Positions 10,535 through 48,747 of a stretch of 50,230 nt of DNA are shown here, piece by piece. Position 1 is the first letter of the stretch. Every line of letters starts with the position of its first letter. The position numbers were made by a program, and so were the translations under genes. The notes below the pieces were generated by a model. The model was not told the origin of the DNA and made no database searches. It saw nothing but the letters and a program-made list of their open reading frames with translations. This DNA comes from a virus (Duplodnaviria; Caudoviricetes), in the IMG/VR virus record IMGVR_UViG_3300030012_000996, positions 1 to 50,230 of that record. The stretch is one strand, 5' to 3'.

Positions 10535-10891
10535 ATGGCACAAGTAAACATAGCAAACGTAGCCACCATAAAACCTACTCTTGTTACTGCCACAGCAGGC
10601 ACGAGTCTGACCGCTATTATTGATGTAGCTACTGACAGTTGCATGAAAATTGATAGTATATATGTATCAAACATAGACGGGACAAACACCGCAACAGCAA
10701 GCATAGCTGTTAGTGTGGACAATGGTTCAAGCCAACAATATATTATCAAGGCCGTACCAGTACCGCCGGGAGCTTCAATATCGGTCTTAGACACACCATT
10801 ATTCTTAGATGAGACAGACTTGCTATATCACCAGGCATCAGCAGCTAGCGACATAGACGTAGTTGTTTCAGGCGTAGAGATGATTGACTAA
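10535..10891 (+). CDS. small beta-rich structural protein of the fibre block
   Basis: GAGG RBS; 118 aa; coupled to the next gene. Confidence 0.65.
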   Translation: MAQVNIANVATIKPTLVTATAGTSLTAIIDVATDSCMKIDSIYVSNIDGTNTATASIAVSVDNGSSQQYIIKAVPVPPGASISVLDTPLFLDETDLLYHQASAASDIDVVVSGVEMID

Positions 10892-12264
10892 TGATTAATA
10901 CGTTTGATGTGTACGCTTCGGACTTGCAGACAGCAATGAACATGCTTAAATCAGCAGGCTCACATTATTACGACAAGCCAAACGCAGGCCATTACAACAT
11001 TAACGACGTTGAAAAGGGCACTAGATCAAATGAATACAATAGGGCATATGCGCCTACATCTGATTATAGAGAACAATCTGTACAGACAAACGGAAAAAGA
11101 AGTGCAGTAATCTTAACTGGCAGACTATATCTTAATGGCAATTTTGCAGGTATGTATGATTATGCGTACATCAATGGCAATACAACTGTAGACACAGAAG
11201 AATATCCTAAACTAAACCATTGGTTTACAGATAATACCGACACACACTGGGCATTAGTATGCGTAGACGGGACTTTAACAACAGGTCAAAGAAATATAAT
11301 AAAACCACCAGTTAGAAAATTAGGTTTTGTATTACACACTGACGGTGATTTTACACATAACGGACTTGTATCAATGACAGGTAAAGGTGCTAATCATAGT
11401 GGTACTGGAAACTCTCATGGATATACAGCACCAGTCGCTATACCAGTCAAAAGTGGCGTAACCATACCCGCAGCAGGTGGGGCAGGTGGAGCTAGATATT
11501 CTCATTCAGCCAACTCTGCTCAAAAAAATGACGGCGGTACAGCAACTAATGGTACCGGTGGTGGTGGAAGTGGAGCATCTTTTCCAGTAGTTAGCGGTAC
11601 AACTACATCTGGCGCAGGCGCAGCAGGTACTTGTTTTAGTAGTGGGTCAGGTGGTGGTTCTATTATGCAATATCACGCTTCCACAAGTGGCGCAGACCAA
11701 TCAGGCGAAACAATGGATGCGATAGCTAATGGTGGAGCAGGTGGTAATGCCGTTGACCGATCTAGTGTTTATGGACAAATGGGTGGTTCTGGTAATCCTG
11801 CAGGTTGCATAAGAGGTTCAGACTCTATAACAACTTTAAACTTTTGGGGTGGTCAAAGTGGTAATATAAACCCTCAACCATTTCACTATTACGGATATGG
11901 AGAAGATGTAAACATTGAAGATAAAAGAGCTGTACTTGGAAACAGCTACTATCTTTCAAGACCATATTCAGTAGGTATTGGTGGAGGTGACAATGGTTTT
12001 GACGGAACCGCAGGGTGTTTATACATTTTTGTAAACGGAACATGGTCTGGAACTGGCAGAGCCTATTCACAAGGTAGTTCAACTGGTAATGCTCATGACG
12101 GCGTCTCAGGTGCAGGCGGTGGTTGTGTCGGTGGAGGTGTAGTTTGCATACTTTCAGACAGCACATCAGGCGGACCTAGTTCATATGTCACAGGTGGCCC
12201 TGTAGGTAATAACTACGGCGGTGGCGGTGGTGGAAATGGTTCAGCTATTAGAGGTACTTTCTAA
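10891..12264 (+). CDS. glycine-rich virion/fibre-tip protein
   Basis: Many GGGG(S/A) tracts in the C-terminal two-thirds. Confidence 0.65.
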   Translation: MINTFDVYASDLQTAMNMLKSAGSHYYDKPNAGHYNINDVEKGTRSNEYNRAYAPTSDYREQSVQTNGKRSAVILTGRLYLNGNFAGMYDYAYINGNTTVDTEEYPKLNHWFTDNTDTHWALVCVDGTLTTGQRNIIKPPVRKLGFVLHTDGDFTHNGLVSMTGKGANHSGTGNSHGYTAPVAIPVKSGVTIPAAGGAGGARYSHSANSAQKNDGGTATNGTGGGGSGASFPVVSGTTTSGAGAAGTCFSSGSGGGSIMQYHASTSGADQSGETMDAIANGGAGGNAVDRSSVYGQMGGSGNPAGCIRGSDSITTLNFWGGQSGNINPQPFHYYGYGEDVNIEDKRAVLGNSYYLSRPYSVGIGGGDNGFDGTAGCLYIFVNGTWSGTGRAYSQGSSTGNAHDGVSGAGGGCVGGGVVCILSDSTSGGPSSYVTGGPVGNNYGGGGGGNGSAIRGTF

Positions 12265-27141: not shown

Positions 27142-27477
27142 ATGGCTACTCATACTTTTAATTACACATACAGTTTTGATAGCATTTCAACAATGCCATT
27201 GAGCATGACAGACGATACGCAGATAGTTAAAAACGTATGCGTAAGCGTTACAGCGGTTGATGCTGCGGATAACACAAAGACACTAACTGAAAAAATGTAC
27301 GCGTCTTTAGACGGGATTTATAGCTATGAAGTTAGCGGTTTGCCAAGTGATTTCATACAAGTTGATGATTTAACTGATGCAAAAGCTATAGAATGGTGGC
27401 AAGCTACAACAACAGTAGATAATCTTAACATTTACTTTACATGGCAAATATATGGAGTTGCCGAAAATGATGAATAG
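27142..27477 (+). CDS. hypothetical tail-associated protein
   Basis: Abuts the J stop codon; 111 aa. Confidence 0.65.
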   Translation: MATHTFNYTYSFDSISTMPLSMTDDTQIVKNVCVSVTAVDAADNTKTLTEKMYASLDGIYSYEVSGLPSDFIQVDDLTDAKAIEWWQATTTVDNLNIYFTWQIYGVAENDE

Positions 27478-27485
27478 GAGAAAAT

Positions 27486-27866
27486 ATGCAAGACGGAAGA
27501 TTTAGCGGAGACATGGATAGAAACGAGGTAGAAATGGACTTGAACAAGTTCATGGCTATGGTTGAGGAGATTGGGGCCCTTAAGGATAAAATCAGGGAAC
27601 TAGAAGATGCTACAAACGTAAACCCGCATCAGAAATGGATTCACTTAGCGCAGGCCGTAGACTCCTGGCGCATATTTCCCAGAGTGTTCCTAAGCGTTTA
27701 CATATTCTTGCTTTACTACTCAACAATGTGGTTTATGGCATTAGAGGAACCAAGCCTAGAGCAAAGTGGTCTCATATCTATCATAGTAGGTGCTGGGGCG
27801 GCATGGTTCGGTTTATACGCAGGCACAAGCGGTGCAAGCAAGAGTTTTAAAGGAGAAGATAAATAA
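27486..27866 (+). CDS. two-TM membrane protein, holin-like
   Basis: WRIFPR followed by two hydrophobic helices; AGGAG RBS. Confidence 0.6.
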   Translation: MQDGRFSGDMDRNEVEMDLNKFMAMVEEIGALKDKIRELEDATNVNPHQKWIHLAQAVDSWRIFPRVFLSVYIFLLYYSTMWFMALEEPSLEQSGLISIIVGAGAAWFGLYAGTSGASKSFKGEDK

Positions 27867-27896
27867 AAAAAAAGAGAGCCGAAGCTCTCTCTTTTT
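27865..27896. terminator. bidirectional intrinsic terminator
   Basis: A-run-GAGAGC-CGAA-GCTCTCT-CTTTTT. The minus strand reads a cUUCGg tetraloop followed by a long U-run. Confidence 0.88.
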
Positions 27897-28213
27897 CGCT
27901 CAATTCACCGATTGACTAACTAGATTCATTGTAAAGCTACTCCTAAGAGTGTATATGCACCTGACTTTGAGACTTGATCCGCCGATCTTATGCTTCCTAG
28001 TTTGCGACTAAGACTTCTCATTACCAGTCAATAACTATGCAATCTTTCTTATATTGCTATGTTAACGCCTTCTGCTATATTCTCACCTAAAAAGTTGATA
28101 AGTCTTTTTATTTTGCACTATCTTTAAAAGATAGGGTGAACTTCTCTTTTTACATCAGAGTGGGTTAATTAATCCCTGTCTATCAATCTGATGCGTCAGC
28201 TCTCCATTAACAT
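27866..28213 (-). ncRNA. candidate ~350-nt structured non-coding RNA
   Basis: Own promoter and terminator; longest ORF I found is 31 codons; multiple nested stems (see findings). Confidence 0.6.
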
Positions 28214-28219
28214 ATGATA

Positions 28220-28261
28220 ATTATGTCTGCATAAAAAATAAAGTAAACCCTTTTTGGAATA
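28220..28261 (-). promoter_or_regulatory. leftward promoter with TATTCC motif (copy 2), driving the ncRNA candidate
   Basis: TATTCCAAAAAGGG-TTTACT-16 bp-CATAAT. Confidence 0.65.
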
Positions 28262-28370
28262 TATTTTAATTTTTTTTTCTTGGGTGTTATGTTCAGCTAT
28301 GATAGGATTTACAAGACTGCCCTAAGACTAGGGATAATTTGGCAAAGCCATAGTCATTTCAGGATTGACT

Positions 28371-29480
28371 ATGAATGATGACGACCAAAGAAAGCACGAT
28401 AACATAATTGTATGGGCTGCGCTGATGTTCTGCATAACTTTAGTTGCCGGTATATCCATAAACGTTAACGCCCAGTCTAGCCAACAATCAGGTACTGCTT
28501 GCGTAAACGGATCACAGTATTGTGAAAACAACAACCTATATACGTCAAACAACACGACTACGAATAATACAAATTCAAATACGAACACAAATACTAATAC
28601 GTCAACTTCAACGGCGACTAATACAAACTCAAACACAAACGTAAATACGACGACATCTACAGCGACGAACACGAATTCAAACACCAACGTTAATACTTCA
28701 AACAACGTCAACGTTAATACTTCTACTGCTACTTCAACTTCAAATAACACTAATACGAATGTAAATACTTCTACCTCTACGGTAAATTCTACTGTTAACC
28801 AGAACGTTAATAATACTAATAATTCAACGTCTAATAACACGAATCAGAATACGAACATAAATCAATCCACCTCTGAATCAAATGTTACGACAAACAATGT
28901 TAATGAAAATAACAATAATACGACCAGTAATAACACGAACCGTAATATAAACGAGTCAAATAGCACCCAGACAATAAACCAAAACATTAAATCGGAAGCG
29001 CCCCCTGCAAGCGCTATAGCTCCAAGTATAATGAGCTATTCGCAAGACCTTTGCACCACAGGAGTTAGTGGGGCATTTCAAGGACAAGTATTCGGTTTGT
29101 CTGGTGGTAAAACCATTGTTGATCAAAACTGCGAAAGGTTGAAACTTTCTAAATATTTGTATGACATGGGTATGAAAGTCGCGTCAGTAGCTCTACTTTG
29201 CCAAGATGAGAGAGTATTTAAGGCTATGGAAATGGCAGGTACGCCTTGCCCTTACAACGGCAAGATCGGTAAAGAAGCATCAGAAGAATGGGCCAAGAAT
29301 CAATCAAAGAGACCTGATGCAGAAGATAAGGAAAAAGAGTTTATCAAACAATGCACTAAAGAGGCTAACCCTAAAAGAGCAGGCATCAATAAAGATGTTG
29401 TTGGTATAGTCAAGAAAACATATACAAGAAAAACTAAAACCGATAAACAATGCCGTCAAGAATTTTATGCTACGCAGTAG
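28371..29480 (+). CDS. exported/membrane-anchored Asn/Thr-rich protein with Cys-rich C-terminal domain
   Basis: N-terminal hydrophobic segment ending VNA-Q; ~150-aa N/T/S tract; DLC...NCERLK...LLCQD...GTPCP. Confidence 0.8.
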   Translation: MNDDDQRKHDNIIVWAALMFCITLVAGISINVNAQSSQQSGTACVNGSQYCENNNLYTSNNTTTNNTNSNTNTNTNTSTSTATNTNSNTNVNTTTSTATNTNSNTNVNTSNNVNVNTSTATSTSNNTNTNVNTSTSTVNSTVNQNVNNTNNSTSNNTNQNTNINQSTSESNVTTNNVNENNNNTTSNNTNRNINESNSTQTINQNIKSEAPPASAIAPSIMSYSQDLCTTGVSGAFQGQVFGLSGGKTIVDQNCERLKLSKYLYDMGMKVASVALLCQDERVFKAMEMAGTPCPYNGKIGKEASEEWAKNQSKRPDAEDKEKEFIKQCTKEANPKRAGINKDVVGIVKKTYTRKTKTDKQCRQEFYATQ

Positions 29481-35433: not shown

Positions 35434-35774
35434 TAGACTTGCACTCCTTTCAAAAATTCTGTGCAAAACATTTCGTCAATATCCTCAAGTTCCATGTTGC
35501 CGAAATCGTTTTCAGAGTACCAGCCAGATTTAACAAGAGCTATATCGTTGTTTTTTCTGCTTATCAGCTTGGCAAATTTATAGGCTTGTTCTTTGCTTTC
35601 GTAATCCTCACTTTCAACAAAAGAATCGGCATAGCCACCGTTTGAGAGGAAATCTTCTCTAGTTAATTTGTAACCGTGTTTTTTCATTTCTTTTTGCTGA
35701 TCCAGTCTGAAAAGCATGTTTTCTTTAACAGGACAAAAGTATTCAACAAAATACATTCTAGTTAGGCTTTTCAT
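35433..35774 (-). CDS. hypothetical protein
   Basis: Coupled member of the leftward operon. Confidence 0.7.
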   Translation of the reverse strand: MKSLTRMYFVEYFCPVKENMLFRLDQQKEMKKHGYKLTREDFLSNGGYADSFVESEDYESKEQAYKFAKLISRKNNDIALVKSGWYSENDFGNMELEDIDEMFCTEFLKGVQV

Positions 35775-35965
35775 CAGTGAAGTACCCTCTCTCTACAGCC
35801 GTTCTTGAGGAACATAGCCAGATCGTAGTTGTCGGCGGCACTCAATATAGACTCAACCTCTTTAAGCGACATGCTCATTAGATCGGCTTGGTACTTTATT
35901 GACAGCTTAGCCATTTTCTTTTCCAGTGCGGACATCTCCCTAAACTCGTCGTTCTTAATTGACAT
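35774..35965 (-). CDS. hypothetical protein
   Basis: Likely start MSIKND with GAGG RBS. Confidence 0.65.
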   Translation of the reverse strand: MSIKNDEFREMSALEKKMAKLSIKYQADLMSMSLKEVESILSAADNYDLAMFLKNGCRERVLH

Positions 35966-36131
35966 TTTCCACCTCTCTAGGTTCGTAGCTTGCTGTGTGG
36001 CCCGTAGCCCATATCTCGTCAACGCGTCTCTTTGCGTCGGCTTCCTTGTTGTAGGTCGCTATCTTCTTGTGCTCACCGTATCTACCTATGTGCGCGAAAT
36101 ACTGGTACACGTCATATACTGTCGTCTTCAT
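35955..36131 (-). CDS. 58-aa hypothetical protein (not in the ORF track)
   Basis: MKTTVYDVYQYFAHIGRYGEHKKIATY...EPREVENVN; ATGA overlap with the upstream gene. Confidence 0.65.
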   Translation of the reverse strand: MKTTVYDVYQYFAHIGRYGEHKKIATYNKEADAKRRVDEIWATGHTASYEPREVENVN

Positions 36132-36508
36132 TTTATTTTTCCGACGTAAGCATCAAGTACGTAAGGCCCGTATTGCTCAATGCTGTCAATGTACTCAATA
36201 GACCAGTTAGTCCTGGTGTAATACTTATCCTTGAATAAACCGTAGTCAAACATCAGTTCGCAGTAGAAATTGAACTTCTTGTACTTACTCCTAAGAGCAG
36301 ACTTTCTTATAAGTTTTTTGTACTGCGTGTTGTAGAGTCTTAAAGCCATTTCGTAATCGCAGGCCGCCTTGACGAACTTCGTTACCAACTTAAGCAGGCT
36401 TTCGTCAAACGGCACTATCGTGTTGTAGTCCCTTGCGCCTCCTATGCAAGAATACTCTCCACCTATCGCAGTTAGATAGAGGGTGCTTAATGAGTTATCA
36501 GATTTCAT
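36128..36508 (-). CDS. hypothetical protein
   Basis: AGGAG RBS; TAATG coupling. Confidence 0.7.
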   Translation of the reverse strand: MKSDNSLSTLYLTAIGGEYSCIGGARDYNTIVPFDESLLKLVTKFVKAACDYEMALRLYNTQYKKLIRKSALRSKYKKFNFYCELMFDYGLFKDKYYTRTNWSIEYIDSIEQYGPYVLDAYVGKIK

Positions 36509-36756
36509 TACTTAACTCCTGCAACAAAAGAGTCATAAGCTAATTTAGCTTTTTCTTTACTAAATTCTTTAAATGGAATATTTTTTTCATATCTGCCTGC
36601 GAAACCTTCTATTAATTTATAATCAGTTTCGCCGTCAACAAAGTTTCTTATAAACAGGCGTTTTTCTTCTTTGTTTTTAGAATAAAAAACTTCTGTTACT
36701 TGACACTTTCTACCTAGATAAGATAGATTTTTTTTAGCTATATTATGAATTTTCAT
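36508..36756 (-). CDS. hypothetical protein, first gene of the leftward early operon
   Basis: AGGAG RBS downstream of promoter copy 3. Confidence 0.75.
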   Translation of the reverse strand: MKIHNIAKKNLSYLGRKCQVTEVFYSKNKEEKRLFIRNFVDGETDYKLIEGFAGRYEKNIPFKEFSKEKAKLAYDSFVAGVK

Positions 36757-36796
36757 TTTATTCTCCTGCTCTATGAGCGTTTCAATTTATATATAA

Positions 36797-36839
36797 ATTC
36801 TAATCTTTTTTTACGTAATAGTAAACCTTTTTTGGAATA
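36797..36839 (-). promoter_or_regulatory. leftward promoter with TATTCC motif (copy 3)
   Basis: TATTCCAAAAAAGG-TTTACT-17 bp-TAGAAT; overlaps the 3' end of vsr. Confidence 0.75.
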
Positions 36840-37230
36840 ATTTATTAATAACTTTTTCTAGCTTTTCTGGCTTGTTTACATGGCATTCCCATACTGTTTC
36901 AACTTCCCAGCCAAGTTTCCTAAGGTCTCTGCGGTTCCTAGCGTCTCGTTTTCTATTGGCTGTAAACTTGTTTAGCCAGAACTCTGTATTAGTCTTAGGA
37001 ACCTTTCTACCTCTCTTGCAGTTATGTTTATGCCAGAAACAACCGTTCACGAATATGCAGGTGTTGTATTTCGGCATAACTATGTCCGGTTTCCCGGGCA
37101 AGTCCTTTCTATGCAGTGAAAATCTGAATCCTAAACCGTGTAGCAGCTTTCGCATGTTCACCTCTGGTTTGGTGTTCTTTGACTTGATGCAGGACATTAT
37201 CTTGCTTCTGACTGGATCGGGCTTATTCAT
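36811..37230 (-). CDS. vsr: very short patch repair endonuclease
   Basis: RS..MS.IKSKNTKPE, LPGKPDIV, FVNGCFWH, FW..K...N..RD, GW....VWEC. Confidence 0.92.
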   Translation of the reverse strand: MNKPDPVRSKIMSCIKSKNTKPEVNMRKLLHGLGFRFSLHRKDLPGKPDIVMPKYNTCIFVNGCFWHKHNCKRGRKVPKTNTEFWLNKFTANRKRDARNRRDLRKLGWEVETVWECHVNKPEKLEKVINKLFQKRFTIT

Positions 37231-39699: not shown

Positions 39700-39749
39700 T
39701 TGTCATTTAATGTATATGTGATTATAATTCATATTTGGAATAATTGAAA
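39700..39749. promoter_or_regulatory. interlocked opposite-strand promoters sharing one ATTATAAT
   Basis: Plus: TTGTCA-17 bp-TATAAT (39700-39728). Minus: TTTCAA-17 bp-TATAAT (39749-39721). Confidence 0.65.
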
Positions 39750-40066: not shown

Positions 40067-40585
40067 ATGAACAAAGAAATATTAAACGTTGAATTATCTA
40101 AATTAGTTCCATATGAGAAAAACTCACGCACGCACACGCAAGAGCAAATAGAACAGATAGCAAGCTCTATTCAGGAGTTTGGTTTTACTAACCCTGTTCT
40201 TATAGACGAGAACAACTCCGTACTGGCAGGTCACGGTAGAGTCAAGGCGGCTGAACTTTTAGAGCTTAATGATGTGCCTACACTAAAAGTAACTGGATTA
40301 TCTGATAAACAGAAAAGAGCATACGTAATAGCAGACAATAAGTTAGCTCTTAATGCTACTTGGAATGACGACATATTGCAGACCGAGTTGCAGGATTTGT
40401 TCAATTCAGACTTTGACCTAAGCATACTAGGATTAAATGAGAATGAGATAAACAGCTTTCTAGGCGATTCACTTAACGACATATCTGACGAAAAGGATTT
40501 TGTAGGGGCCGAGGAAATCACATTAGACGACATAGATAACTTTGCTCATGAATGTCCGAGATGCGGCTTCAATTTTAATGATTGA
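40067..40585 (+). CDS. ParB/Srx-like domain protein with C-terminal Cys motif
   Basis: NSRTH, SIQEFGFTNPVLID, AGHGR, ADNKL; ends HECPRCGF. Confidence 0.88.
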   Translation: MNKEILNVELSKLVPYEKNSRTHTQEQIEQIASSIQEFGFTNPVLIDENNSVLAGHGRVKAAELLELNDVPTLKVTGLSDKQKRAYVIADNKLALNATWNDDILQTELQDLFNSDFDLSILGLNENEINSFLGDSLNDISDEKDFVGAEEITLDDIDNFAHECPRCGFNFND

Positions 40586-41618
40586 CAAACGTAAGCACGG
40601 TTCCTGGTGGTTTAGGGATTTAGAAGGCATAAGAAAAAACGGATTAAACGTATTCAGTACCTTTAGCTGCGGAGGTGGTTCAACTATGGGCTACAAGTTA
40701 GCCGGTTGCAATGTTCTAGGTTGCGTAGAGATTGACGATAAGTTAATGGAAATGTACAAGGCTAATCACAATCCGAAATATTCATACAAAATGGCTATAC
40801 AGGATTTCAACAAAATACCACTTAATGAAATACCAGAACCCTTAAAAAACTTAGACATATTAGACGGATCGCCGCCGTGTTCTGTTTTCAGCACGGCAGG
40901 AGCAAGAGAAAAAAAATGGGGCAAGGAATATTATTTCAGAGAGGGCCAGGAAGTGCAGAAGCTGGACGATTTATTTTTCCACTTTATAGATACCGCTGAA
41001 AGGCTTAAGCCTAAGATCGTGATAGCAGAAAACGTAAGAGGTCTTATTCTAGGAAATGCTAGAGGTTACGTGAAAGAAATATTTTTAGCATTAGACAAGG
41101 CCGGTTACGACGCGCAACTATATTTACTCAACGCTGCTAAAATGGGTGTTCCGCAGTCTAGGGTTAGAACATTTTTTATAGCAAGAAGAAAAGACCTTAA
41201 ACTACCTAAGGTTAAACTGGAATTCAACGAGCCTAACATTTCTTTTTACGATGCAATGAGGGGCACAAACCAGGAACAGGAGAGAAAAAAGATAAGGCAT
41301 ACGCTTTTAGAAATGTGGAGAGCAACTAAACCGGGTAAAAATCTAGGAACAGCTAACGAGAAAGGACATTTCTTTAGCCTATACAAAGTCAATCCAAAGC
41401 TACCAGTCAACACGATTACCGCTAACGGACCCACGCACATACACTGGGACAAACCCTACTATTTATCAAAACAAGAGCTCATAAGGCTCCAGACATTTCC
41501 AGAGGACTATGATTTCTTGGATCAACAGACGCAATACGTAACTGGAATGTCCGTTCCGCCGTTTATGATTCAAAGGGTCGTGCTTGAGATAGATCGGCAG
41601 CTATCGTTGTCTACTTGA
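40578..41618 (+). CDS. DNA (cytosine-5) methyltransferase
   Basis: FSCGGG (motif I), GSPPC (IV), ENV (VI), QSR.R (VIII), RLQTFP, GMSVPP (X). Confidence 0.93.
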   Translation: MIDKRKHGSWWFRDLEGIRKNGLNVFSTFSCGGGSTMGYKLAGCNVLGCVEIDDKLMEMYKANHNPKYSYKMAIQDFNKIPLNEIPEPLKNLDILDGSPPCSVFSTAGAREKKWGKEYYFREGQEVQKLDDLFFHFIDTAERLKPKIVIAENVRGLILGNARGYVKEIFLALDKAGYDAQLYLLNAAKMGVPQSRVRTFFIARRKDLKLPKVKLEFNEPNISFYDAMRGTNQEQERKKIRHTLLEMWRATKPGKNLGTANEKGHFFSLYKVNPKLPVNTITANGPTHIHWDKPYYLSKQELIRLQTFPEDYDFLDQQTQYVTGMSVPPFMIQRVVLEIDRQLSLST

Positions 41619-44424: not shown

Positions 44425-44805
44425 TTAATTGATTGAATGAAACTCCATGTAGGGTTCTTCGCTATGGCCCTCTGGCAGCCAAGACAACTTATCGGCAACT
44501 TCGGTCATAAACAAATTCACATCTGTTGTTCCGCCGTCCTCTGTCTCTCTAGCGAGGATTGCCTTACCAGCGTAGTTACCGGAACCCAGTCTGAAATACC
44601 TATTGTTATTCCTCAATAGGCCTTCGTCGTCTACGTACATAATAACACCGCCGCCTAAACGGACAATGTCAAAGCATCTGCAATCCATAACCTTATAGTA
44701 GTCCTGAATGTTTGAATCGGACAATTCCACGTAGGATAGACTCTGATCAAAGGGGTCTATAAGCATTACTTGGATTCGGTTTTCGTTGGGGTTTTCTTCT
44801 TTCAT
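44425..44805 (-). CDS. DUF3846-like hypothetical protein
   Basis: LIDPF...MYVDDEGLL...YAGKAIL. Confidence 0.7.
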   Translation of the reverse strand: MKEENPNENRIQVMLIDPFDQSLSYVELSDSNIQDYYKVMDCRCFDIVRLGGGVIMYVDDEGLLRNNNRYFRLGSGNYAGKAILARETEDGGTTDVNLFMTEVADKLSWLPEGHSEEPYMEFHSIN

Positions 44806-44845
44806 TTTATACCTGCTCTGTGAGCGTTTAATTTATTTAGTACGA

Positions 44846-44888
44846 ATATTAACGCTTGTTACCCCTCAAATAAACCTTTTTTGGAATA
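44846..44888 (-). promoter_or_regulatory. leftward promoter with TATTCC motif (copy 4)
   Basis: TATTCCAAAAAAGG-TTTATT-17 bp-TAATAT. Confidence 0.7.
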
Positions 44889-44964
44889 TTAATATACCGA
44901 TATTGATAAAATGCTTTGTTTATAATCATTTTTGGAATAATATGTTGATAAAATCTTAGAATTT

Positions 44965-46729: not shown

Positions 46730-48747
46730 TGGCAGAACAAAACTTTTTTCAAAGACTGTTCAACAGACAACCAGTTGAACAAAAAAATTCAAACATGATG
46801 GGATATTTTGGTGTTGGCACAGATGAAGCCAAGACATATAAATATGCGGACTTGGCAAAGGAAGGCTACCTTAAGAACGCAATCGTCTACCGATGCGTTA
46901 ACGAGATTTCCAAAGGAGCAAGCGCTGTACCCTTCATAATCAAAGCCGGTGATCAGATATTAGAGGAACACCCACTGATAAGCCTACTTAACAGACCTAA
47001 CCCCCTTCAATCATATAGTGAATTCTTTAACAGTCTATTCGGATATGTATTACTAAGCGGTAACGCCTACATTCTAAAAACAGGTAGCGATATGGGAGCG
47101 CCTAAGGAATTGCACCAGCTAAGGCCCGATCGCATAAACATCAAAGGCAGTGGCAAACCGATTCCTGATAAGTACGAATACATGGTCAACGGTAGGGTCG
47201 CAGCAACGTACCTAGTTGACCAGGAGAATGGATTCAGCGAACTCAAACACGTCAAACTCTGGAACCCACTTGACGATTACTACGGACTAAGTCCAATGAG
47301 TGCCGCAGCAGTAGAGGTTGACCAGTTCAACATGTCAAGCAAGCATAACGTTAATCTTCTGCAGAATGGAGCAAGACCGAGCGGTGCTGTTGTATTCAAG
47401 CCCCAAGATGATCAAGGTTTCGCCGTAAATCTTACAGAGTCACAAAGACAGCAGCTATTGACAGACATGAACAATAGATTCTCGGGGGCGAACAACGCAG
47501 GACGGCCCATGCTACTGGAGGGAGACTTTGACTGGAAGGAAATGGGCATGAGCCCTAAGGACATGGACTTCCTAAATCTTAAGCACATGAGTGCGACGGA
47601 TATAGCGCTGTGTTTCGGAGTGCCGAGCCAACTCGTAGGCGTTCCAGACAGCCAGACCTATTCTAACGTAGCAGAAGCAAGACTGGCTCTGTATGAGGAA
47701 ACAATCATTCCACATTTGAGAAAACTTTCGTCAGACCTTAACGAGTGGTTGGTGCCATTGTTTGACGATCGTTTAACATTAGAGTTTGATATTGACTCTA
47801 TTCCTGCATTATCAGAAAGAGTTAAAAGAACATATGAGAATGTGACTTCTGCAGTAAGAGAAGGAATAATGACCAGGAATGAAGCGAGAGAACAGTTAGG
47901 GCTAGAGCCTAAAGACGGTGCAGACGACCTATACATATCAGCTACTTTGTTTCCGCTTGGAGACGGTGACGTAGAGAGACCGGAGAACCCAGTCAATGAC
48001 GAGGACATGGAAGACTACGAAGACGAGGAGATTGATAAGGAGATAGCATTACTTCTAGCAGAAGAAAAGGCGTTATCAGACATAAACACAGTACCGACAA
48101 ACTCTATGGCAGAGGAAGCTGCTAGAGGCCTTGAATGGAGAAGAAAGTACAAGCGTGGCGGAACTGCTGTAGGCGTTGCACGTGCTAACCAGCTTATGAA
48201 CAAGGAAAGGTTGTCAATTTCCACTGTCAAGAGAATGCATAGCTACTTTAGCAGGCACGAGGTTGACAAAAGAGCGGAAGGTTTCAGACAGGGCGAAAAG
48301 GGTTATCCTAGCGCAGGTAGAATCGCTTGGGCTCTCTGGGGCGGAGACGCAGGTCAATCCTGGGCGAAAAAGGTAAGGGACCAGATAGAGCGCGAAGAAA
48401 ACAAGAGCGACGAAGACGAACACATACACACCGTAGAGGACACGAAAGAACTTACCGGCAAAGTTAAAAAGGCTCTGCAGAAAAAGGTTGACGACCATAA
48501 TGAGAAGTACGGAGATAATCCAGCCAAGAGAGCTACTCTTAGAATGTTAGAAGCTGTATTCCGTAGGGGAGTGGGAGCCTATAGAACGAACCCCCAAAGC
48601 GTAAGACCGAACGTTACCGGTCCTGATCAATGGGCATATGCTCGCGTGAACGCATTTATGGTTGCCCTAAGGACTGGAAGATTTAGGAATAAGCCTTTTG
48701 ACACAGACCTATTGCCGAAGGAACACCCACTGTCAAGTAAGACCTGA
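46729..48747 (+). CDS. HK97-family portal protein with two C-terminal passenger domains
   Basis: YGLSP, NGARPSG, CFGVP, MTRNEAR within the first ~420 aa, then ~240 extra residues. Confidence 0.93.
   Translation: MAEQNFFQRLFNRQPVEQKNSNMMGYFGVGTDEAKTYKYADLAKEGYLKNAIVYRCVNEISKGASAVPFIIKAGDQILEEHPLISLLNRPNPLQSYSEFFNSLFGYVLLSGNAYILKTGSDMGAPKELHQLRPDRINIKGSGKPIPDKYEYMVNGRVAATYLVDQENGFSELKHVKLWNPLDDYYGLSPMSAAAVEVDQFNMSSKHNVNLLQNGARPSGAVVFKPQDDQGFAVNLTESQRQQLLTDMNNRFSGANNAGRPMLLEGDFDWKEMGMSPKDMDFLNLKHMSATDIALCFGVPSQLVGVPDSQTYSNVAEARLALYEETIIPHLRKLSSDLNEWLVPLFDDRLTLEFDIDSIPALSERVKRTYENVTSAVREGIMTRNEAREQLGLEPKDGADDLYISATLFPLGDGDVERPENPVNDEDMEDYEDEEIDKEIALLLAEEKALSDINTVPTNSMAEEAARGLEWRRKYKRGGTAVGVARANQLMNKERLSISTVKRMHSYFSRHEVDKRAEGFRQGEKGYPSAGRIAWALWGGDAGQSWAKKVRDQIEREENKSDEDEHIHTVEDTKELTGKVKKALQKKVDDHNEKYGDNPAKRATLRMLEAVFRRGVGAYRTNPQSVRPNVTGPDQWAYARVNAFMVALRTGRFRNKPFDTDLLPKEHPLSSKT

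Follow-up and report, generated by a model that had tools for sequence, protein, structure and literature searches.

In the window (the whole stretch of viral DNA that was analysed, 50,230 bp), two late genes, p126 and p369, are separated by an insertion of 504 nt (window 27867-28370) that carries a leftward unit with its own promoter and terminator (Table 1). The limits of the insertion were set by comparing the junction with that of relatives, many of which have p126 and p369 abutting or overlapping; their junction reads GATAAATGA.. in the alignment, where the stop of p126 and the start of p369 overlap. Another gene directly follows p126 in 75 of the 78 loci found with p126, and the gap before p369 is at most 15 nt in 19 of the 43 loci found with p369. 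Relatives carry at least five distinct kinds of content at this junction, and the spacer upstream of p369 is common to phages with different cargo or none at the junction. Phages of this group are common: the gene next to the unit is encoded on about 590 IMG/VR stretches.

Table 1 Coordinates of the insertion, its features and the flanking genes.
Feature	Position in window	Strand	Remarks
p126, flanking late gene	27486-27866	+	PHROG 10198, a family without assigned function
Whole insertion	27867-28370	.	From alignment with phages whose p126 stop overlaps the p369 start, and from junction censuses
Bidirectional intrinsic terminator	27866-27897	.	A-run, GAGAGAGC, UUCG loop, GCUCUCU, U-run
RNA gene	27866-28213	-	348 nt, from A 28213 to the terminator U-run; library contigs cover 317-321 nt
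Invariant block 2	27919-27968	-	RNA 246-295, 50 nt; holds the ACUC/GAGU hairpin; no difference between variants
31-codon ORF	27926-28021	-	ATG frame within domain 2; longest ORF in the unit; no Shine-Dalgarno sequence
Domain 2 core	27968-28020	-	RNA 194-246; UGAGA/UCUCA around hairpins 201-219 and 227-238
Hairpin GCAAU/AUUGC	28039-28057	-	RNA 157-175; U161-A171 to C-G, compensatory
Invariant block 1	28054-28124	-	RNA 90-160, 71 nt; no difference between variants; partly single-stranded in the model
Domain 1	28059-28213	-	RNA 1-155, closed by nt 1-9 with 147-155; closing stem recovered by RNAalifold
Y-shaped element	28083-28139	-	RNA 75-131; UCACC/GGUGA around two hairpins; in MFE and centroid structures
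Helix CAUCAGA/UCUGAUG in domain 1	28193-28187 with 28159-28153	-	
-10 hexamer CATAAT	28220-28225	-	CATACT in the variant; start A 28213 lies 7 nt downstream
TATTCC motif and -35 GTTTAC (28248-28243)	28243-28261	-	Leftward promoter class, sigma-70-like
Spacer upstream of p369	28300-28354	+	Outside the RNA module; 84% identity to L190, L192, and L194, 77% to L182
p369, flanking late gene	28371-29480	+	PHROG 20531; N-terminal hydrophobic segment, Thr/Asn-rich repeats

The earlier note, made from the sequence alone, had singled out this region as the one large gap in a packed genome, and its coordinates and all the strings it named are indeed present: the largest ORF-free stretch of the record (ORFs of at least 45 aa, either strand) lies at 27867-28327 (461 nt). 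A gap at 1-422 is an artefact of an open-ended ORF. The insert is AT-rich (36.5% GC against 42.0% for the genome), and the AT skew flips within it.

Since Pfam scans of 30 window proteins identified no integrase, the phage looks lytic. The nearest isolates share just 38-51% amino-acid identity in capsid-region proteins, and the MAG bins with p126 relatives carry conflicting labels (Pelagibacter, Flavobacteriaceae, and Maricaulis).

Promoter, terminator, and transcript contigs

The TATTCC motif had been proposed as the promoter of a leftward class that also drives protein operons, and this reading held. The sequence TATTCCAAAAA[A/G]GGTT[T/A]A[C/T] occurs four times in the window, against 0.01 expected from shuffles, always on the minus strand (919-937, 28243-28261, 36821-36839, and 44870-44888). 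Downstream of the other three copies lie a Shine-Dalgarno sequence and then ATGAAA, and the copy at 44870-44888 stands at the head of a leftward replication operon for DUF3846, HTH, and primase-helicase proteins. A 21-mer of this promoter class was found at 23 further IMG/VR loci. In the promoter of the RNA gene, the -35 and -10 elements are separated by 17 nt. From the promoter class alone, expression of the unit would be early.

At the other end, the minus-strand terminator reported earlier (27897-27866) consists of a 14-bp stem, a UUCG loop, and a U-run; none of 200 shuffles was equally stable (z -3.2). It scored on both strands.

Contigs assembled from ocean RNA libraries matched the unit at 100% identity and with no other letters in two cases: one from X6 (321 nt, 27893-28213) and one from X7 (319 nt, 27897-28213). 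Both stop at 28213, the A 7 nt past the -10 hexamer, a position without a listed loose end. A DNA contig from X7's sample continues over 27615-28300. The stretch matched by the RNA-library contigs thus reaches from the predicted start to the terminator's foot, in keeping with the discrete transcript suggested earlier; being assembled, the contigs give no strand. These contigs come from two samples of one study and convey no expression level, and RNA libraries can hold DNA. In the RNA runs, p126 and most of p369 had no contig, and the contig depths were 67 and 12; neither observation was weighed as evidence. Among the other runs, X8 and X9 had a word share of 0.58, and X17-X20, from two additional studies, one of 0.07, which carried no weight.

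No family in Rfam 15, ribozymes and riboswitches included, matched any part of the window at its gathering score. With E values up to 10, the best E was 0.13 and the best sub-threshold family was JA01 (24.5 bits, where its gathering score is 111), and ARAGORN predicted no tRNA or tmRNA. These results agree with the view that the RNA is of an unfamiliar class, distinct from tRNA, tmRNA, RNase P, and 6S. The loci with two other ORF-less units (L086 and L101) gave no Rfam match either, and the three kinds of ORF-less unit are unlike one another (global alignment z -0.9 to +1.2). An RNA anti-CRISPR or solitary CRISPR repeat was considered and rejected, as the 19-mer of the GUUCAC-type hairpin (one probe) had 17 single matches in unrelated genomes and no array. 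A search for target complementarity within the phage gave nothing above chance.

A second variant and the structure of the RNA

A second variant of the unit was found in a related phage, on three IMG/VR contigs (L224-L226), which are 89.4% identical to the window over 423 nt (window 27859-28277) and 92% identical over the RNA gene. Homology spans the promoter, RNA, and terminator only, and the flanks are unrelated: the variant has a primase-helicase gene on one side and, on the other, an 80-aa ORF, after which comes a PD-(D/E)XK nuclease gene. Its setting is co-directional and early-region, while the window copy sits in the late region. The unit therefore moved as a single block with its own promoter and terminator, as expected of the stand-alone gene suggested earlier. 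The two variants differ by 28 substitutions and 3 indels. In the same two phages, DNA identity is 73% for terminase, 76% for portal, and 68% for primase-helicase, so that the RNA module is better conserved than the terminase and portal genes. The promoter is intact in either variant, with TATTAC...TTGACA in the second variant at the position of the TATTCC and -35 elements, and the terminator is unchanged. Two long blocks within the RNA are invariant (Table 1).

Other searches returned no homologue. None was found by blastn and nhmmer in 80 loci found with p126, and BLAST on 150 related records detected the 3 known carriers and none among the other 147. Probes for RNA 38-61, 78-96, and 292-310 found no homologue in IMG/VR, nor did exact probes in cellular genomes or blastn in the phage isolate collection; in metagenomes, a 19-mer matched one identical TARA contig, along with 9 chance matches. 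A covariance model, R1, scored 344-348 bits on both variants; run over some 1.17 Mb of loci, among them six near-complete relatives and the remaining ORF-less units, it detected no homologue. For loci L144-L223, the negative result comes from blastn and nhmmer.

The changes between the variants were then set against a set of helices consisting of those of the earlier note, a GGG/CCC helix, hairpin 201-219, and the terminator. Nine pairs of this set are changed: three by compensatory double changes, three on one side in a compatible way, and three disruptively. The compensatory changes fall in GCAAU/AUUGC, UGAGA/UCUCA, and GAUC/GAUC, helices that had been named before any homologue was seen; in the domain 2 core they convert A198-U242 and A228-U237 to G-C. 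Single changes in this core turn G195-C245 into G-U and U203-G217 into C-G. Domain 1 has no compensatory changes, and in its closing stem A6-U150 becomes G-U. In the Y-shaped element, the sole change is one base missing from a hairpin loop. The disrupted pairs are G40-C50 and two in the closing stem of domain 2.

With the 28 substitutions placed at random, the probability of at least three compensatory pairs was 0.00035-0.00055 and that of at most three disrupted pairs was 0.0004-0.0007, and controls with slid helices gave 0 compensatory pairs. A shuffle control gave 57 of 500, where with two rows this value cannot fall under 1 in 8. RNAalifold predicted 91 pairs, none of them broken, and recovered the closing stem of domain 1 unaided. 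G-U pairs occur in nine predicted pair columns, where the other strand would give A-C, in line with the earlier observation that the G-U pairs work on the minus strand only. No variants inside the RNA were found in the DNA sequencing runs, which consequently provide no covariation data. As there are just two distinct sequences, the covariation comes down to three double changes.

The two-domain fold proposed earlier is thus supported for most of its helices, including the closing stem of domain 1 with its one wobble-compatible change, and is not for the closing stem of domain 2 with its two disruptive ones. As a global fold it lies 7.1 kcal/mol above the MFE, and the pair probability of its closing stems is ≤0.004. 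The comparison of folding energy with dinucleotide shuffles, which had been suggested as a check, showed nothing exceptional, as the 316-nt core (z -0.12), domain 1 (z -0.07), and domain 2 (z -0.14) are no more stable than shuffles. Stability beyond shuffles is limited to the Y-shaped element (z -2.5, with 3 of 200 shuffles equally stable) and the terminator. A folding-energy z near zero did not exclude selected structure here: the compensatory changes between the two variants support a structured RNA that appears to be under selection.

Coding, cis-acting, and other readings

Coding capacity was the first alternative. As stated earlier, the longest ORF has 31 codons and no clear ribosome-binding site. 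It would be unlikely, in our view, that the unit serves as the mRNA, or as a dual-function RNA, of a peptide of 31 residues, MRSLSRKLGSIRSADQVSKSGAYTLLGVALQ (28021-27926), and that its conservation reflects this peptide. Both variants keep the frame open; it has four synonymous and three non-synonymous changes (L4P, V17A, and S18L), and its last 13 codons are identical. Conservation of this ORF with a synonymous pattern had been named as evidence against an RNA gene, and because of these numbers that objection is not fully removed. Nevertheless, all seven changes fit RNA helices, and four of them make two compensatory pairs that a peptide does not explain; the share of third-position changes (4 of 7) has a binomial P of about 0.17, and the 50 invariant bases are without synonymous change either. 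Moreover, sequence far outside the frame is conserved as well, such as the 71 nt of invariant block 1. The AUG and helix UGAGA/UCUCA overlap, and the ORF lacks a Shine-Dalgarno sequence, while the phage's genes have AGGAG or AAGGA 5-8 nt before the ATG. The exact 31-residue sequence is absent among about 15 billion proteins and has no match in Pfam or PHROGs, and exact look-up of three small ORFs in the protein collection found none of them. Translations of the unit in three frames, with X at stops, gave no protein signal against Pfam and PHROGs. A decayed protein gene was also rejected: tblastx of the insert against related loci (786 kb and, in a second round, 392 kb) matched nothing but the promoter and the spacer that precedes p369.

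Another reading is a role in cis, in which the bidirectional terminator and the convergent promoter would shield the late operon from p126 to p369 or set its timing, or the RNA would be antisense to read-through transcripts. The terminator scores on the plus strand directly past p126, the two genes are coupled in relatives, and RNA 296-304 is complementary over 9 nt to the translation start region of p369. This complementarity is within chance (P = 0.042 for p369; matches of at least 9 nt in 3 of 53 genes against about 2.2 expected), and the stretch is altered in the variant. An insulator, furthermore, does not need selection on internal helices, and the module retains 89% identity among other neighbours, in an early-region setting that is co-directional. 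We therefore regard a cis-acting function as improbable.

We see little chance that the unit is a functionless relic, that is, a promoter-leader-terminator cassette whose coding cargo was lost as cassettes turned over at a recombination hot spot and which is still transcribed. The changes between the variants preserve structure, and a relic would hardly be conserved above the terminase and portal genes, with two long invariant blocks, an intact promoter and terminator in both variants, and no protein remnant. What fits such a relic is the variable content of the junction in relatives, the resemblance of RNA +24 to +52 to the box-plus-hairpin leader of protein-coding cassettes, the deviant GC content, and the core folding energy. 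An origin-associated primer transcript is very improbable: T7 or T4 origins and ColE1 RNA II have a promoter beside an AT-rich region, and the unit is AT-rich and in its variant form lies directly behind a primase-helicase gene, but it is missing from 147 of 150 related records, two of the six near-complete relatives (G030 and G036) are without any ORF-free stretch of at least 200 nt, and the window copy sits in the late region.

Interpretation and comparison with known systems

Taken together, the insertion, the promoter and terminator, the lack of any ORF longer than 31 codons, the RNA contigs, and the relocated variant with its compensatory changes point to a mobile gene whose product is a structured non-coding RNA and which represents a new family. 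That this is a real structured non-coding RNA gene is, in our judgement, very likely; we hold with moderate confidence the full reading, in which window 27866-28261 is an autonomous gene that moves horizontally and encodes a structured non-coding RNA (about 320-350 nt) from an undescribed family. Since the sequence of the module is kept in two unrelated neighbourhoods, an accessory RNA acting in trans appears most likely, and, given a real structured RNA gene, we consider such action quite probable. A protein-binding decoy or scaffold seems somewhat more likely than a base-pairing regulator; the roles named earlier (protein sponge, anti-defence decoy, or scaffold) would be candidates.

In the mechanism that we propose, host RNA polymerase would transcribe the unit leftward, probably early in infection. 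The RNA would then fold so that its 5′ end closes a first domain, which is followed by a central hairpin, another domain, and a hairpin at the 3′ end. The expected partner of the two invariant, largely unpaired blocks would be a protein or another RNA, of host or phage origin.

Phage accessory cassettes are nearly always taken as protein genes, and the cargo here would be a multi-domain RNA, which makes the unit a candidate means by which uncultured marine phages might take over the host, or counter its defences, with an RNA. It is conceivable, though rather doubtful, that it is the founding member of "RNA morons", self-contained structured RNA genes that marine phages swap like protein cassettes and whose early-promoter transcripts would disarm the host or reprogram it, with the L063/L055-type and L086-type ORF-less units at this hot spot as further, unrelated members. 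If so, an example of their role could be that of a decoy for a defence protein or an RNA-binding protein. Model R1 can be used to gather further members of the family.

The IMES RNAs, large structured RNAs without assigned function, are abundant in marine metatranscriptomes. The phage RNA phi29 pRNA and 6S RNA, which acts on RNA polymerase, are abundant structured RNAs that work through protein binding. pRNA is an essential part of the motor with a fixed position in phi29-like podoviruses, and 6S forms a rod some 180 nt long; the RNA described here would be accessory and has no Rfam match to any family, hence none to pRNA or 6S.

In the portion of Weinberg et al. (2017, PMC5737381) that we draw on, GOLLD and ROOL are described as large multi-junction RNAs without assigned function, GOLLD occurring often in prophages. 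Compared with these, our RNA is shorter (about 350 nt versus at least 581 nt), has no Rfam match, and is represented by two variants so far. The non-coding RNA candidates of virulent Pseudomonas phages identified by ONT-cappable-seq are, in the sections of Putzeys et al. (2024, PMC10914365) concerned with them, mostly species of about 90-210 nt that derive from 5′UTRs or 3′UTRs and are tied to a gene. Like our RNA, they have a defined start and a terminator, correspond to no annotated feature, have no assigned function, and are conserved among close relatives; unlike most of them, it is stand-alone, and it has changed position.

AsxR and AgvB, as presented in the relevant part of Tree et al. 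(2014, PMC4104026), are prophage anti-sRNAs of 51-60 nt that lie at the lambdoid moron site, bind Hfq, and sponge host sRNAs. They share with our unit that they are RNA genes at an insertion-tolerant site, convergent with the late operon, and that they form related, non-identical groups across phages; however, our RNA has six times their length and several domains, and its sequence is not related to theirs.

Finally, morons, going by the account given in part of Cumby et al. (2012, PMC3594210), which cites Juhala et al. (2000), are additional DNA inserted between genes that neighbour each other in related phages, with their own promoter and terminator and a deviant base composition. Measured against that account, the unit differs in that its cargo would be RNA and not protein, in that the phage looks lytic, with no integrase among the 30 proteins scanned, and in that the promoter is of the phage's own early-type class and does not imply expression from a repressed prophage. 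The likeness lies in the inserted DNA, the promoter and terminator of its own, and the deviant base composition, all of which the unit has in common with morons as described there.

An autonomous promoter-RNA-terminator unit

The window (50,230 bp, direct terminal repeats at the record ends) encodes terminase, portal, protease, HK97-type capsid, tape measure, a 1091-aa tail fibre and lysozyme on the + strand, and the replication and recombination genes (primase-helicase, Sak, PD-(D/E)XK nuclease, Vsr and an HTH protein) on the minus strand. A Pfam scan of 30 window proteins found no integrase, and the phage looks lytic. Relatives of p126, the late gene to the left of the RNA unit, are encoded by 590 IMG/VR stretches, so the phage group is common; its closest isolates are distant. 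The late gene to the right, p369, has an N-terminal hydrophobic segment, a conserved C-terminal domain (PHROG 20531) and Thr/Asn-rich, low-complexity repeats of ~150 residues whose length differs among relatives.

All the sequence strings quoted in the earlier note were found in the window, and the large gap it described is the longest window stretch lacking an ORF of at least 45 aa. The leftward promoter with a TATTCC motif was also confirmed, as TATTCCAAAAA[A/G]GGTT.. occurs four times in the window, always on the minus strand, versus 0.01 expected. The other three copies are followed by a Shine-Dalgarno sequence and ATGAAA. The terminator proposed for the unit is an intrinsic one.

A word index placed parts of the stretch in 20 runs from 10 studies; among them, four metatranscriptome runs, all from a single study, each had a word share of 0.58-0.60, about the expectation, by our arithmetic, if 320 nt of the 505-nt query were present. 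Contigs from two RNA runs, of two samples, were mapped to 27200-28900 together with those of two DNA runs. Each RNA library yielded a single contig, one of 321 nt (27893-28213) and one of 319 nt (27897-28213), neither with a differing letter. Both end at 28213, an A seven bases past the -10 hexamer, and their opposite ends lie just short of the terminator stem. Among the matches listed, no loose end was found at 28213, and the DNA contig from the sample shared with one RNA run extends past both ends (27615-28300). These RNA contigs, from one study and carrying neither strand nor level, are a weak hint of a transcript, given weight, by inference, by the exact coincidence of their end with the predicted start; of the discrete minus-strand transcript proposed earlier, they match the start and leave strand and level aside. 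The unit is an autonomous promoter-RNA-terminator present in RNA libraries, and its promoter class suggests that the host polymerase would transcribe it early.

Most protein-coding cassettes behind the promoter 21-mer (loci L083-L105 of relatives and two in the window) share a leader in which the box AAATTGATAAA near the start site precedes a small hairpin, AGGA and ATG; the stem letters vary by locus with pairing kept (GCC..GGC, CCC..GGG, GCCU..AGGC), and the leader looks like a conserved regulatory element. The inverse of the promoter motif, TTTGGAATAAT, lies immediately 3' of TATAAT-like hexamers ahead of two + strand genes (40067, 44965), a position from which TTGGAATA may be the site of a regulator acting on both promoter types.

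A mobile module and an insertion hot spot

The p126 stop and p369 start overlap in relatives (GATAAATGA..), and the window carries 504 additional bases at exactly that point. Among the 78 p126-found loci with sufficient downstream sequence, 75 run directly into p369 or a gene pair (97 aa and about 85 aa); the exceptions are L022, where the same promoter drives small proteins leftward, and L063 and L055, which carry an ORF-less unit of another kind. The 43 p369-found loci with both gene ends placeable had a gap of at most 15 nt (19), a + strand gene of ~138 aa with a thermonuclease-like motif (17, 8 of them checked), a spacer of ~90 nt alone (3), a leftward cassette that encodes two small proteins and has a terminator of its own (3) or a leftward cassette for 127-aa and 255-aa proteins (1). 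This junction (window 27866/28371; L022, L144-L221, L177, L182, L190-L194, L218) is an insertion hot spot. Depending on the relative, it is empty or holds the spacer, the thermonuclease-like + strand gene, the RNA module or one of three distinct leftward protein cassettes. As the rightmost 55-70 nt of the window insertion are a spacer common to several p369-found loci, the RNA module proper spans ~27859-28285.

The ORF-less unit of L063 and L055 (~85% identity between the two contigs, by eye) has a promoter of TATTCC type in L063 and TTGCAT-17-TATAAT in L055, a folding z of -2.1 (3 of 100 shuffles equally stable) and no likeness to the window RNA; the L063 contig (searched as L101) had no Rfam match, and a 24-mer probe of IMG/VR found no copies beyond these two. 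The single ORF-free stretch of a complete 54-kb relative (L086) carries the window's promoter and a similar leader (UUGAUAGA, then an AGGGAUU..CCC hairpin), followed by ~290 nt of GC-richer RNA with a terminator at its end, ahead of the next gene. With a folding z of -1.66 and no Rfam match, it could be a leader, an attenuator or another RNA gene. Near-complete relatives G005 and G010 have ORF-free stretches of 441-695 nt.

A 19-mer taken from RNA 129-147 (nt 1 being the A at 28213, counted leftward) and scanned against IMG/VR identified a second variant on three contigs (L224-L226), which do not differ from one another across the unit and share 89.4% identity with the window along 423 nt (27859-28277). 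The homology comprises promoter, RNA and terminator with unrelated flanks, which agrees with the stand-alone unit first proposed. The variant's phage is related to the window phage (terminase 81%, portal 86%, primase-helicase 65% amino-acid identity), and its unit, on the strand of the early genes, has the primase-helicase gene on one side and an 80-aa ORF, then the nuclease gene, on the other. At the DNA level these core genes share 73%, 76% and 68% identity, respectively, and the module is therefore far better conserved. Its promoter retains the geometry with changed letters (-35 TTTACT to TTGACA, -10 CATAAT to CATACT) and the same start A.

The module is thus mobile, standing at different genome positions in the two phages: convergent with late genes in the window, co-directional with early genes in its relative. 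Since its sequence is kept in two unrelated neighbourhoods, functions that depend on the adjacent genes (insulator, antisense to p369, origin) are unlikely and action in trans is preferred; the best fit to the sequences would be a trans-acting accessory RNA.

Covariation and RNA structure

The two RNAs differ by 28 substitutions and 3 indels. We tested the helices of the earlier note, named before any homologue was known, and three added ones (GGG/CCC, hairpin 201-219, terminator). Nine pairs were changed: three compensatory, three one-sided but still paired and three broken. Sliding the partners by 1-3 columns gave no double changes, with 37-48% of cells paired. The tool's shuffle control gave 57/500; because it cannot drop below 1 in 8 with two rows, we placed the 28 substitutions at random onto same-kind bases (20,000 trials). 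At least three compensatory pairs were obtained in 0.035-0.055% of trials, at most three broken pairs in 0.04-0.07%, and both jointly in none. The helices of the RNA are under selection.

RNAalifold, run without the earlier model, recovered the domain 1 closing stem, the CAUCAGA helix, the Y-shaped element (RNA 75-131), the central hairpin, the domain 2 helices and the ACUC/GAGU hairpin, closing domain 2 by UUGACU/AGUCAG in place of the stem first proposed; its 91 pairs all remain intact, this structure, fitted to both sequences, being a description and not a test. Several predicted helices, including the domain 1 closing stem, held across the two sequences, whereas the domain 2 closing stem and G40-C50 did not. 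Folding energy versus shuffles gave no support (316-nt core, z = -0.12; whole unit, z = -1.9, attributable to the terminator), and the global fold first drawn lies 7.1 kcal/mol above the MFE. Ahead of the comparison with the second variant, the unit had looked more like a relic cassette. As claimed, G-U pairs favour the minus strand: they occur in nine pair columns, would be A-C on the opposite strand, and in the model point to minus as the functional strand. The differences are clustered, leaving blocks of 71 and 50 nt without any change (probability under even spread well below 0.05, by a rough estimate).

The longest ORF, of 31 codons, lacks a Shine-Dalgarno sequence, as first noted. That it is coding, possibly as a second function, seems improbable: the frame is open in both variants and its seven changes are four synonymous and three non-synonymous, but all seven also fit the RNA model, four of them as two compensatory pairs, its AUG lies inside a helix, and conservation reaches far past it. 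The promoter-RNA-terminator unit, the covariation and the variant support a stand-alone structured non-coding RNA gene.

Features in the window, its RNA and relatives
Feature	Position	Strand	Detail
Longest ORF-free stretch	27867-28327		
p369	28371-29480	+	
Promoter of unit (-10)	28225-28220	minus	motif, -35 GTTTAC, 17-nt spacer, -10 CATAAT
Terminator hairpin	27897-27866	both	
Motif copy	44870-44888	minus	head of primase-helicase operon
Cassettes behind promoter 21-mer	36745-36840, 44790-44890		
TTTGGAATAAT	39715-39745, 44915-44950	+	
GATTGACTA(A)TG	10882-10893, 28363-28373	+	start region of two late genes
Other ORF-less unit	L063:4379-4712, L055:2375-2700	minus	~330 nt, leftward, at p126 boundary
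ORF-free stretch	L086:975-1268 = G042:3915-4304	minus	
ORF-free stretches	G005: 40323-40763, 47304-47866, 48119-48724; G010: 35447-36141		
Compensatory	U161-A171		C-G; GCAAU/AUUGC
Compensatory	A198-U242		G-C; UGAGA/UCUCA
Compensatory	A228-U237		G-C; GAUC/GAUC
One-sided, paired	A6-U150		G-U; domain 1 closing stem
One-sided, paired	U203-G217		C-G
One-sided, paired	G195-C245		G-U
Broken	G40-C50		
Broken (two pairs)			domain 2 closing stem

Possible action and known systems

An Rfam scan gave no family match, in line with the unfamiliar class suspected earlier, and a negative tRNA/tmRNA scan ruled out those identities. The RNA, filed as a new family, is named in no Rfam family nor in the literature of our non-exhaustive search. 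No protein remnant was found in the unit, no CRISPR array with its GUUCAC-type hairpin, and no targets above chance inside the phage genome. RNA 295-304 complements the start region GATTGACTA(A)TG shared by two late genes; as a target this region was rejected, the match being within chance and that stretch changed in the second variant. For a trans-acting RNA, the invariant blocks, mostly unpaired in the model, would be natural candidates for a surface binding a partner.

Other phage RNAs are described in the sources consulted: ORF-less transcription units are common in virulent Pseudomonas phages (PMC10914365), prophages can carry large orphan RNAs such as GOLLD (PMC5737381), and moron sites of lambdoid prophages host RNA genes, namely anti-sRNAs of 51-60 nt (PMC4104026). 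The window RNA has no sequence or model relationship to these or to moron cargo. Morons are described as extra DNA with their own promoter and terminator and deviant composition (PMC3594210); the window unit has the same anatomy and differs by its RNA cargo and its lytic-looking phage.
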